This document shows, one piece after another, positions 3,005-29,714 of a stretch of 64,000 nt of DNA. Numbering within the stretch: position 1 is the first letter of the stretch; each line of letters opens with the position of its first letter. The notes below the pieces were generated by a model. The model was not told the origin of the DNA and did not search any database. It worked only from the letters and a program-made list of their open reading frames with translations. The stretch lies in the IMG/VR virus record IMGVR_UViG_3300043570_000570, positions 52,183 to 116,182 of that record, one strand, 5' to 3'. This DNA is from a virus. A program made the position numbers and the translations under genes.

Positions 3005-4156
3005 TTATTTGAAATACTTTGAGAAGGCATCTTCGTTTGACTTGTTAGACGGTGAAGACTTCTTACTCTTAGTTTTAAGATTGTTGAACAGAGAATTGGT
3101 TTCATCTGTTACTGCTTTTCTTTTTACAGGAGACAAGTCCAAATTGCTTTGAACTAGTTTTGCTACAGCTAAGAACTTACTAGGATCTTCTTGACGCATA
3201 CGAGCTAGTTTGTATTCAAACTCACTAATACGTTGTCCGTTTGGAAGAACATGAGGCTTAGAAAGAACAAAGTCAAATAGTTCGTTTGCAGCTTGCTCAT
3301 TGATAGGATAACCTTCAATAGAACCTGAAGCAATTGCTCCATCTAATACATCTGCATATAACTGTTCTCTTTCTTCTTCTTTCTGTCTCATCACTTGAAC
3401 CCTTGCTTCACTCTCTTGGGCAAGTACTGCTCTTTCCTGTTGCATTTTCTCTACAAGTTTACCGTGGTATTTTTGAGAGTAGGCTTCTAAGCGATCATTG
3501 TCCCTAGCGTAGTTAAGTTGATCTTGGATTTCATCTTCGTCCATTCCTGTTTTAGCTAGATACAAACGGAAAACTCTTTCCTGATTTGATTCTACACTCA
3601 AGTCTACATTTTCTACAATCTGTTCGTTAGAGAACTTCTGTAAGTATTCTTGTACTGGAACTTTATTAATGAAGATATCTTCGATCATCTGTACTCCTGC
3701 TTCTCCGTAGGTTTCTGTTGCAAGTTGCTCTAGTTGATTCCAAGCCTTGTCTTCGATGGTATCATTCATCTTAGCTAAGAAGGTTTGTTCATTCCATTCG
3801 ATTTCTTCGCCTTCTTCTACATTAAGCATTCCTGCTTGTATAAGACCATTGGCAAAAACCTCAAATTGATTCTCTTCTCCTTCTTCATCTTCGTCATCCT
3901 CTAGGTTTACTTCTTCTTCCTCTTCTTCTGCAGGTGCAGGAGTAGTTTTCTTTTTAGGTAAAGGTAAATCATCATCTCCTAAAGGATCTTCAGAACCTTC
4001 TGGCTCTGTTTCCTCAGCTAGGGGATCGTAATTTTCCCCATTTAAGATGTCTGGTTTGACGTTGGCATTGGGATCTTCTGCGGCATCCTCGAAAGGATCA
4101 TCCACGGAAAAACTGTCAAAGAACTCTAAGTTCTCTAATGGATTATCATTAGTCAT
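3005..4156 (-). CDS. Acidic scaffolding-like protein
   Basis: 383 aa, very D/E-rich N-terminus then coiled coil; between portal and MCP. Confidence 0.65.
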   Translation of the reverse strand: MTNDNPLENLEFFDSFSVDDPFEDAAEDPNANVKPDILNGENYDPLAEETEPEGSEDPLGDDDLPLPKKKTTPAPAEEEEEEVNLEDDEDEEGEENQFEVFANGLIQAGMLNVEEGEEIEWNEQTFLAKMNDTIEDKAWNQLEQLATETYGEAGVQMIEDIFINKVPVQEYLQKFSNEQIVENVDLSVESNQERVFRLYLAKTGMDEDEIQDQLNYARDNDRLEAYSQKYHGKLVEKMQQERAVLAQESEARVQVMRQKEEEREQLYADVLDGAIASGSIEGYPINEQAANELFDFVLSKPHVLPNGQRISEFEYKLARMRQEDPSKFLAVAKLVQSNLDLSPVKRKAVTDETNSLFNNLKTKSKKSSPSNKSNEDAFSKYFK

Positions 4157-26294: not shown

Positions 26295-26367
26295 CTTTTA
26301 AAGTTAATTGGATGACACAAATATAAGCTAACTTTAAATAAATCAAAGTCTTGTCTCTGAAAACTTA

Positions 26368-26570
26368 TCTCCCCAAAATTTTTAGACCCCCCATCCCAAA
26401 ATTTCTCCCAAAATTTTTTCTAAAATTTTTAGACCCCTAAAATTTTTTATGTTCATAGGAGGGTGGGACCAAAATTTTATACCCCCGTCAACTTGATTAT
26501 ATCTATATGAGGGTGGGGGACACCAATTTAACATACCCCATCCCAAAATTGGCGCTAGGGGTACCCCCTA
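26368..26570. repeat. Repeated CC(C)AAAATTT(T) / C-tract cluster at the late/early strand switch
   Basis: Several AAAATTT units, two AAAATTTTTAGACCCC, two CCCCATCCCAAAATT and G/C runs in a divergent intergenic region. Confidence 0.6.
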
Positions 26571-26914: not shown

Positions 26915-27307
26915 CCCACACTTTGTGGGACAAAGGGTAACTTAACTGTTTAACCTTGCCATTTTACTGTGCATTCTTCTCATTTATCTATGAAATGATA
27001 GTTTTTTTGGTCTCAGCCCGGTAAATAACGAGACAAGACTAAAGAATTCTATCATTTTATGGTATATATGTAGTGGTAAATAGTGGGGAATCACTCCCTT
27101 CAATCTTCTATTTATCACTTAAAAGTGGGTAATTGTGGGGTTGACATGGTACGTTATGAATAATTTGTTGTTCTTATGTTAAATTAGACAACTATTAACC
27201 TCTATAACCTCATTACCCTGTCTTATGCTTTTCTCTTATCTTCTCTTACGTAGTAATCATCATTAGCCTGATGATTCCTTAACTGATTCTAAGCGAACTT
27301 TACGCTT

Positions 27308-27369
27308 GGTCGACTATGCGACCTTAAATAGCCTTTAGGCATAGTGCGTCACTATATGAGTGGGTATGG
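27308..27369 (+). ncRNA. Pistol self-cleaving ribozyme
   Basis: P1 GGTCG/CGACC, loop ACTATG pairing with CATAGT (pseudoknot), TTAAATAG linker, GCG, P3 TCACT/AGTGG, GT cleavage site 27364-27365; P2 (CCT/ATGG) imperfect. Confidence 0.8.
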
Positions 27370-27524
27370 AAACAATAATTAAAGAGTATTACTTAACTGA
27401 AGGAAGTAAGTTAGTAAATTATAGCATAGGTACTAATGGTGTTGATTGTTGGTTTGATACTAATGATATTAGACAACACAGATGTTTATCTATTGAAGAT
27501 TTTGAACTTATTAAGGGGGCTTAA
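27366..27524 (+). CDS. Early mini-gene (52 aa)
   Basis: METIIKEYYL...LIKGA*; ATG lies in the pistol P2 strand. Confidence 0.6.
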   Translation: METIIKEYYLTEGSKLVNYSIGTNGVDCWFDTNDIRQHRCLSIEDFELIKGA

Positions 27525-27554
27525 TCGCCTCCTTTAAACTTTAATAAAAAGAAT

Positions 27555-27686
27555 ATGAAAACAATAGAACAAACAATTGATAGTTTAGAACAGCAAGTAA
27601 GAGATACATATCCTTCATGGAATAATGAAATGATTAGGTCTAAGGCTGTTAGAATGTATTATTTAAATGAAGAGTTGGGAGCTTAG
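27555..27686 (+). CDS. Early mini-gene (43 aa)
   Basis: MKTIEQTIDSLE...EELGA*, A-rich leader. Confidence 0.6.
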   Translation: MKTIEQTIDSLEQQVRDTYPSWNNEMIRSKAVRMYYLNEELGA

Positions 27687-27712
27687 TCTCCCTTTACTTT
27701 AACTAAACAAAT

Positions 27713-27862
27713 ATGAAAAACTATAGAGTCACCTACTATAATACAGAATATAGCATTAAGTCTATTTCTGTTATGGCTTTTACTCAAGAAGAAGCAAGAA
27801 CTTATGTATATAGTCACATAGAAGATTGTGTTCAAACACTCTCTGCTGAATATATATACTAA
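27713..27862 (+). CDS. Early mini-gene (49 aa)
   Basis: MKNYRVTYY...AFTQEEAR..., A-rich leader. Confidence 0.6.
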   Translation: MKNYRVTYYNTEYSIKSISVMAFTQEEARTYVYSHIEDCVQTLSAEYIY

Positions 27863-27867
27863 ACATT

Positions 27868-27969
27868 ATCAAAGAGTAGTAACACTGCATGTAAACTGGT
27901 TATCCTTGATTACAGTATGCAGACCTTTACATAGTAAATCAAGCTATGTTATGTATTGGACTCTTTGAT
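27868..27969 (+). ncRNA. Unassigned three-way-junction RNA with kissing loops
   Basis: 10-bp closing stem and two inner hairpins whose loops CTTGATT/AATCAAG are complementary. Confidence 0.55.
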
Positions 27970-28114
27970 TACTTTAATGCATCATAACCTACTTCACAAG
28001 GGTAGGCAGTTGTAATAACAGTATAGAGTCTGGAGAACCAAGCGTAAGCTGGACATAGGTAGTTCTCATGAAGCTGCGGAAGCTACTATTACAACTGAAT
28101 GCAGAGTGAAGTAA
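27969..28114 (+). ncRNA. Twister ribozyme (type P1, long P5 insertion)
   Basis: P1 TTACTT/AAGTAA, TAA cleavage loop 27975-27977, P2 TGCA/TGCA, P4 CCTAC/GTAGG with TCACAAG loop, 3' GAGTG (CAC/GTG pseudoknot), 11-bp P5 28007-28017/28087-28097. Confidence 0.85.
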
Positions 28115-28211
28115 ACTACAAGGTATGGTATATCCTACTAACACGTCTAGAGGACCTTGTAGTTCTTTTATACCTAAGGGTATTATACCAACTAGTATAA
28201 ACTAAACAGAT

Positions 28212-28424
28212 ATGAAGAAATTTATAATATTCTCTACGTTAAGTCAAGCAAAGAATTACATTAAGCGTAATCTTCCCACCTATAACCATGATGATGGATG
28301 TGGGTGTTGCTATAGTTATTCTTATCCTTTAATACAGGGTAAGCGTATTGTCTATGTTAATAGTTATTCTAACATGGGTAATCCAACTACTGAAGTAACT
28401 GTCATTGGCAGATACAAAAGATAA
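28212..28424 (+). CDS. Early hypothetical protein (GCGCC motif)
   Basis: 70 aa, A-rich leader. Confidence 0.6.
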   Translation: MKKFIIFSTLSQAKNYIKRNLPTYNHDDGCGCCYSYSYPLIQGKRIVYVNSYSNMGNPTTEVTVIGRYKR

Positions 28425-29642: not shown

Positions 29643-29714
29643 GTCCCTTTCGTCTATTGGTAGGACAGCAGGATTTCATCCTGTTAAAGGTGTGTTCGAT
29701 TCACCCAGGGGATA
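29643..29714 (+). tRNA. tRNA-Glu (TTC), slightly degenerate, no encoded CCA
   Basis: Acceptor GTCCCTT/AGGGGAT, D arm, anticodon stem GCAGG/CCTGT with loop ATTTCAT, GTTCGATTC T-loop with one stem mismatch. Confidence 0.8.

Follow-up and report, generated by a model that had tools for sequence, protein, structure and literature searches.

What kind of RNA lies between two very small genes in the early region of a lake phage, and what might it do there? The stretch in question, 102 nt in length (27868–27969, + strand), belongs to a 116-kb IMG/VR virus record, of which 64 kb were analysed (the window, whose coordinates are used throughout); near-identical DNA is found in lake-water metagenome runs. 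The element folds into three arms around a three-way junction, has two loops that are perfectly complementary, and abuts a second structured RNA, here called B (27969–28115, + strand). On the evidence that follows, we class the element as an orphan variant within a known kind of accessory element and not as a demonstrated new class of RNA.

Very small early ORFs follow one another on the + strand from about position 26300. Rfam matches in the 64-kb window are a pistol ribozyme (27308–27369, + strand; RF02679, 47.8 bits against a cut-off of 34.5 bits) and a tRNA at 29643; there are no others. The early transcript that contains the element would have this pistol on its 5' side. The element and B together occupy a gene-free gap of 349 nt (27863–28211) between an ORF of 49 aa (27713–27862, + strand), whose stop codon is located 5 nt before the closing stem of the element, and an ORF of 70 aa. 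Neither the 49-aa product nor the other neighbouring small proteins could be assigned to a family in Pfam or PHROG. On the 3' side of B is a terminator-like hairpin with a U-rich tail (28114–28175, + strand), recognised from its fold and from blastn identities of 85–98% at more than 15 loci. Together with a second small hairpin (TATACC...GGTATTATACC) it makes up a segment (28114–28212) that follows B at 85–98% identity in more than 15 related phages; the stretch between B and these hairpins is variable among the same phages.

Two recurrent motifs are also apparent in the region. A GC hairpin followed by TTTACTTTAA(CTAAACAnATATG) precedes small ORFs at many loci, including 27513–27545 and 27672–27712 in the window, and is present at recombination joints between cassettes. 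The 5' strand of B's P1 (TTTACTTT) has the sequence of this motif, and for this reason copies of B appear to have been grafted onto it. A hairpin of the form TAAGCGAAnnTTTnGCTT(GG) stands directly 5' of a pistol or B copy at loci L015, L016, L023, L028 and L035, at L004 (3240–3270) and in the window (about 27285–27307). Its placement in several phages means that the very beginning of the early transcript may often be occupied by a ribozyme.

Fold of the element and its chance expectation

The closing stem consists of ten perfect pairs predicted by RNAfold between AUCAAAGAGU (27868–27877, + strand) and ACUCUUUGAU (27960–27969, + strand). [quoted passage not shown] Closing stem, first arm and complementary loops had all been described in the initial annotation; each is present where it was placed, and RNAfold returns the same three-way junction.

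For arm 2 (27924–27959, + strand) a different register is favoured. The initial annotation drew it as ACATAG/CTATGT, and these letters are indeed there; the MFE structure instead pairs CC with GG (27924–27925/27958–27959) and, beyond a UU/UU internal loop, UACAUAGUA with UGUUAUGUA (27928–27936/27947–27955), leaving a 10-nt loop (27937–27946) that opens with AAUCAAG (27937–27943). The revised arm has an energy of −25.4 kcal/mol, compared with −22.5 kcal/mol for the earlier register. The sole natural variant seen inside the element in the lake metagenomes, T27949C (two runs), converts the G27934·U27949 pair of the revised arm to G–C, taking its energy from −25.4 to −30.7 kcal/mol; in the earlier drawing the same change would break an A–U pair and move the energy from −22.5 to −21.8 kcal/mol. 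Because the revised register has the lower energy, and because the variant stabilises it while weakening the other, we prefer it. In the revised drawing the junction strands are AGUAACA and A (previously ACCUUU and UAUGUAUUGG), there is direct stacking of arm 2 on the closing stem, the arms differ little in length, and neither 7-mer has left its loop, AAUCAAG being in the loop in either register.

The two loop sequences, CTTGATT (27905–27911) and AATCAAG (27937–27943), are exact reverse complements over 7 nt, and the modelled junction is probably clamped by a loop–loop kiss of 7 bp. The + strand of the element folds at −26.1 kcal/mol (z = −2.45), with 3 of 200 shuffled sequences folding as well. 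Folding of the − strand is weaker (−22.8 kcal/mol, z = −2.08), and the two G·U pairs of arm 2 are possible on the + strand only. When the 349 nt of the gap are folded together, the element, B and the terminator-like hairpin form separate domains side by side.

To define how often such an architecture arises by chance, a custom scanner was used that searches for a closing stem enclosing two hairpins with complementary loops. At its strict setting (closing stem of at least 10 bp, kiss of at least 7 nt) the element is the only match in the real 64-kb window, no such element is found in 230 dinucleotide-preserving shuffles of that window, and none occurs in 404 kb of related phage loci. On these three grounds the kissing-loop architecture exceeds the chance expectation for one window. 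Looser criteria yield 0.07–0.35 elements per shuffled window. The scanner's only other match in the window, an AT-rich sequence at 26375–26478 near the divergent promoter region (8-bp closing stem, 6-nt AAAATT kiss), matches the chance expectation.

Complementary loops around a three-way junction are found in other RNAs. The phi29-type pRNA is phage-encoded, has paired 5' and 3' ends and a three-way junction, and carries two complementary loops that pair between molecules. The element shares the phage origin, the paired ends, the junction and the mutually complementary loops; the complement is 7 nt in place of 4 nt, and the element lies in an early mRNA of a 116-kb lake phage rather than in a separate gene at the genome end. 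Rfam detected no match to the pRNA family (RF00044) and, at E ≤ 10, none to the purine riboswitch (RF00167). A type III hammerhead with its loop–loop contact was likewise considered and rejected: the core strands CUGANGA and GAAA are absent in both strand orientations and there is no Rfam match.

The twister-type RNA downstream

B begins with P1 (27969–27974/28109–28114) and contains P2 (UGCAU/AUGCA), a P4 hairpin with loop UUCACAAGG, a pseudoknot T1 (CAC/GUG) and a P5 of 11 bp around an insert of roughly 70 nt. The order is P1, U-A, P2, P4 (L4 = U-U-CNN-A-A-GG), a long P5 with hypervariable insert, P2', GA, T1' and P1'. An IMG/VR pattern scan with the 5' half of B returned 41 loci; adding copies from other loci and removing duplicates and chance matches left 30 distinct copies. 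The search pattern placed no constraint on the 3' halves or on the interiors of P4 and L4, and it is in these parts that the copies covary without error. The closing pair of P2 is C–G in 19 copies and U–A in 11; T1, formed by the L4 triplet and the 3' tail, is CCA/UGG in 16, CAC/GUG in ten and CCC/GGG in four, with no mismatch; P4 exists in four complementary stem versions; and P5 is always paired around its variable inserts, which range from 37 to 145 nt. CUUU-AA-UGCA and the ...AAGG of L4 are common to all copies, an invariance that was imposed by the search pattern and is therefore weak evidence.

The type-P1 twister has a defined layout in which T1 joins L4 to the 3' side of L1 through three Watson–Crick pairs, with an A–A pair alongside (PMC5408937). 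B has the stems P1, P2 and P4 in this canonical order, together with P5, and its three T1 pairs are flanked by an A after the L4 triplet and an A before the L1 triplet. It differs from the type-P1 twister in T2, where the conserved GC is absent (L2 begins with CA and the L4 dinucleotide is GG, allowing at most one C–G pair); both T2-region motifs were fixed by the search pattern and variants may exist. It also differs in not being recognised by the Rfam twister models: RF03160, RF02684 and RF03154 gave no match to B at E ≤ 10 in searches of 366 nt, 181 nt and 3 kb, none of the models matched a B copy with a short P5 at E ≤ 10, and RF03160 had no match in the whole genome.

Judged by its layout and by covariation in P2, P4 and T1 across the 30 copies, B is a well-supported twister-type RNA with predicted cleavage; these copies (loci L002–L049 and the window) are, on comparison of their sequences, a family of phage twister-type RNAs missed by Rfam. 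The initial annotation, which had named the neighbour a twister, holds only with the qualification that no Rfam twister model matches it. Given the missing T2 GC and the lack of an Rfam twister match, we treat cleavage itself as an assumption. By analogy with twisters, the scissile bond is predicted to be U27975/A27976. This is 6 nt past the end of the element, which had been placed directly upstream of the cut site; that placement needs correcting by this distance. A 3' end generated by the twister, as the initial annotation proposed, is plausible.

Some of the inserts are represented in RNA data, which consist of assembled contigs from two RNA runs (contigs do not show RNA ends). Over this locus the contigs are confined to B's P5 insert and a single stretch near 27540; none reaches the element, which is uninformative either way. 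In one case, a metatranscriptome contig of run X21, the P5 insert (28013–28091) is present at 99% identity within another B-like scaffold with flanks that do not resemble the window, and in a second it runs into a different downstream sequence. Because the insert turns up in these other surroundings the inserts look swapped, and comparison of the contigs suggests that P5 inserts are exchangeable, transcribed modules. The MFE folds of 30 P5 inserts contain no kissing loops.

Position and relatives of the element

The closing stem of the element ends at 27969, precisely where P1 of B starts (27969/27970). There is no linker between the two, and U27969 is a boundary base common to both. According to the description in PMC11662667, which cites Roth et al. 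2014, twister P0 is an optional stem-loop immediately 5' of P1; it is present in about 10% of twister candidates, and P0 hairpins reduced cleavage in vitro (PMC11662667). By this definition of P0/L0 the element is in the P0 position. It resembles P0 also in belonging to an arm that is optional and highly variable, and it departs from the published examples in being a 102-nt three-way junction with complementary loops where those are hairpins.

In related phages, 16 of the 28 distinct contexts upstream of B carry a helix of 5 bp or more whose end lies no further than 3 nt from the P1 strand; among 400 control positions the proportion is 18% (Fisher p = 9e-6). These helices are mostly short GC hairpins followed by UUUA, and the hairpin-plus-UUUACUUUAA motif also occurs between ORFs that have no B. 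Since helices are enriched at this position and most are plain hairpins, the element occupies a place normally held by a helix and is far more elaborate than its counterparts. At locus L003 a stem-closed element (CAATTGTAATA/TATTACAATTG; 3476–3577) lies at the P0 position between two tandem B copies; by eye, it has two hairpins whose loops contain the complementary 6-mers AUCUGU and ACAGAU, and by blastn it, too, is an orphan. Beyond the second B of this locus there is another stem-closed element, about 200 nt long.

Searches for relatives of the element returned little beyond the element itself. Rfam searches of 64 kb, 3 kb and 366 nt yielded no match to it, whether at gathering thresholds or at E ≤ 10, in agreement with the initial annotation, which could match it to no known family. 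There was no blastn match in 50,697 phage records, just chance words of 12–13 nt by blastn-short in 400 kb of related loci, and no exact 20-mer of the element in IMG/VR. A covariance model (R1) run against related loci totalling 343 kb and against 26 related phage records in full recovered the element and the copy in metagenome contig L048 only. No relatives were found in about 2 Mb of related phage DNA, nor a second copy in the 116-kb genome that carries the element. The other copies reached are identical or differ by one base, and being near-identical they leave covariation beyond reach.

The adjoining gene provides a second means of tracing the element. The 49-aa ORF has four homologues with 96–73% identity, three of which (P0002, P0003 and P0004) stand at 83%, 78% and 73%. 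A metagenome scan yielded two copies at 96%, on contigs L048 and L049, each accompanied by an identical element; IMG/VR scans with the ORF found no divergent copies. On both contigs the ORF and element are 99% identical to the window, with two differences that fall within the ORF, yet the B that follows them is of another variant and has a different P5 insert. This combination indicates that ORF and element move as one cassette and, because the cassette adjoins two different B variants, that adjacency to B survives recombination. The left border of the cassette is the conserved intergenic motif, and its right border is the conserved 5' end of B. One contig of run X17 joins other sequence at 27721 to 27863, a junction which suggests that the element may also occur without the ORF. 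We rejected the notion that the element is a MITE or transposon: it is single copy, has no target duplication, and there is no empty site that differs by the element alone.

Possible roles of the element

The account we put forward, tentatively and as somewhat short of an even prospect, is that the element represents an enlarged arm of the P0 type, left after cleavage as the folded 3' terminus of the early mRNA upstream. The early transcript would run from its promoter through the pistol ribozyme and three mini-ORFs to the element, B and the terminator hairpin. B would cut itself between U27975 and A27976, leaving an upstream mRNA that ends in the element and a 6-nt tail, UACUUU, with a 2',3'-cyclic phosphate. 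An end capped in this way should resist 3'-to-5' exonucleases, and the closed domain could in addition keep the upstream mRNA from mispairing with the folding ribozyme. Such a role would be akin to that of the 3'-terminal stabiliser hairpins of bacterial and phage mRNAs, which likewise place a stable structure and a short tail at a processed 3' end (here a predicted one). Those stabilisers are normally single GC-rich hairpins, as are the helices at the P0 position in related phages; the element is branched and AU-rich.

Several of the observations above argue for this account: independent folding of the element within the 349 nt, the coincidence of its closing stem with the beginning of P1 at 27969, the enrichment of helices at the P0 position (16 of 28 contexts against 18% of controls), the occurrence of the ORF–element cassette beside two different B variants, covariation in B with no mismatch in 30 copies, and the fact that the only variant inside the element strengthens a stem. 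Set against them are the orphan status of the element, whose other copies are identical or one base different, and the standing of B, with neither an Rfam twister match nor the T2 GC. A simple hairpin serves in the relatives, so the extra complexity, the kiss included, has no explanation under this account. Moreover, as published P0 hairpins lowered cleavage in vitro (PMC11662667), a helper role in folding of the ribozyme is not established.

Selection need not have been involved at all. An element with neither a sequence nor a structural relative, located in a region that is a mosaic of swapped cassettes, could be what is left of a small inverted-repeat element, or else a recombination-cassette fragment, decaying or there by accident, that happens to fold well; rare folds do arise by chance when very many windows are scanned. 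We regard this as unlikely, albeit worth keeping in view. The 230 shuffles contain no comparable fold, and the element is found in a non-coding gap, exactly at the P0 position where helices are enriched. It has one copy per genome and no signature of an empty site or target duplication, and its single variant (T27949C) strengthens a stem.

Also unlikely is that the element works away from the transcript, as a free-standing stable sRNA of about 108 nt acting in trans (as protein decoy, regulator or anti-defence RNA). On this view B would generate the 3' end, and either RNase processing or a promoter within the last part of the ORF would supply the 5' end. A domain that is compact and closed, and that has an improbable contact of tertiary appearance, would suit such a molecule. 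The cassette also varies between strains, a common trait of accessory or arms-race genes. A sigma-70-like site (TTCAAA-18-TATACT, 27831–27860) would start transcription at about 27867–27868, the first base of the closing stem, but promoter-like sites occur at shuffle frequency in this stretch (10 found, 10.2 expected). The X17 contig, which joins other sequence to 27863, is consistent with an element that may exist without the ORF. Against a released RNA are the absence of homologues and of a second copy in the 116-kb genome, and no RNA contig spans the element (assembled contigs, which are uninformative in either direction).

More doubtful still is a reading in which the element is a functional, tertiary-structured module, carried on the strain-variable cassette of the 49-aa gene and docked onto a self-cleaving RNA, either as a released sRNA clamped by its kissing loops or as a gating sensor, the latter amounting to a natural allosteric ribozyme in a phage mRNA. 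Taken separately, the sensor is improbable. It would bind a ligand or protein, or have its closing stem melted by ribosomes terminating 5 nt upstream, and so decide whether P1 and B fold and cut. The nearness of the stop codon to the stem fits this proposal, as do the boundary base U27969 shared with P1 and the published finding that P0 hairpins modulate cleavage in vitro (PMC11662667). So does the plan of the element: P1 and two parallel arms joined by their loops is the architecture of the purine riboswitch aptamer (RF00167), a closing helix with two side-by-side hairpins whose loops pair. The element nevertheless has neither a junction consensus nor an expression platform, its arms are unequal and longer, and it lies 3' of an ORF; its kiss would involve seven Watson–Crick pairs, as opposed to two G–C pairs and non-canonical contacts. 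No riboswitch family in Rfam matches it, conserved junction nucleotides cannot be shown for an orphan, and its relatives have plain hairpins at the same position.

Ribozymes are known to cluster, and the neighbourhood (a pistol 500 nt upstream and an adjacent twister-type RNA) is all that speaks for the candidate new self-cleaving class of the initial annotation, a proposal that found no support and is extremely improbable: there is no family and hence no conserved core to point to, the hammerhead core is absent, the junction strands AGUAACA and A contain no known catalytic motif, and simple hairpins take the same position in relatives.

The element is thus far a structure of a single lineage without comparative support, and its value at present is mainly as one well-defined construct. 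If the account of an expanded P0 arm is correct, then cutting is not all that the twister-type ribozymes of phages do: at P0 they would carry folded modules that can be exchanged and that come to form the 3' ends of early mRNAs. This would give the long-unexplained auxiliary arms of twister a testable role, and would provide a handle on the clustering of ribozymes in the early regions of phages.
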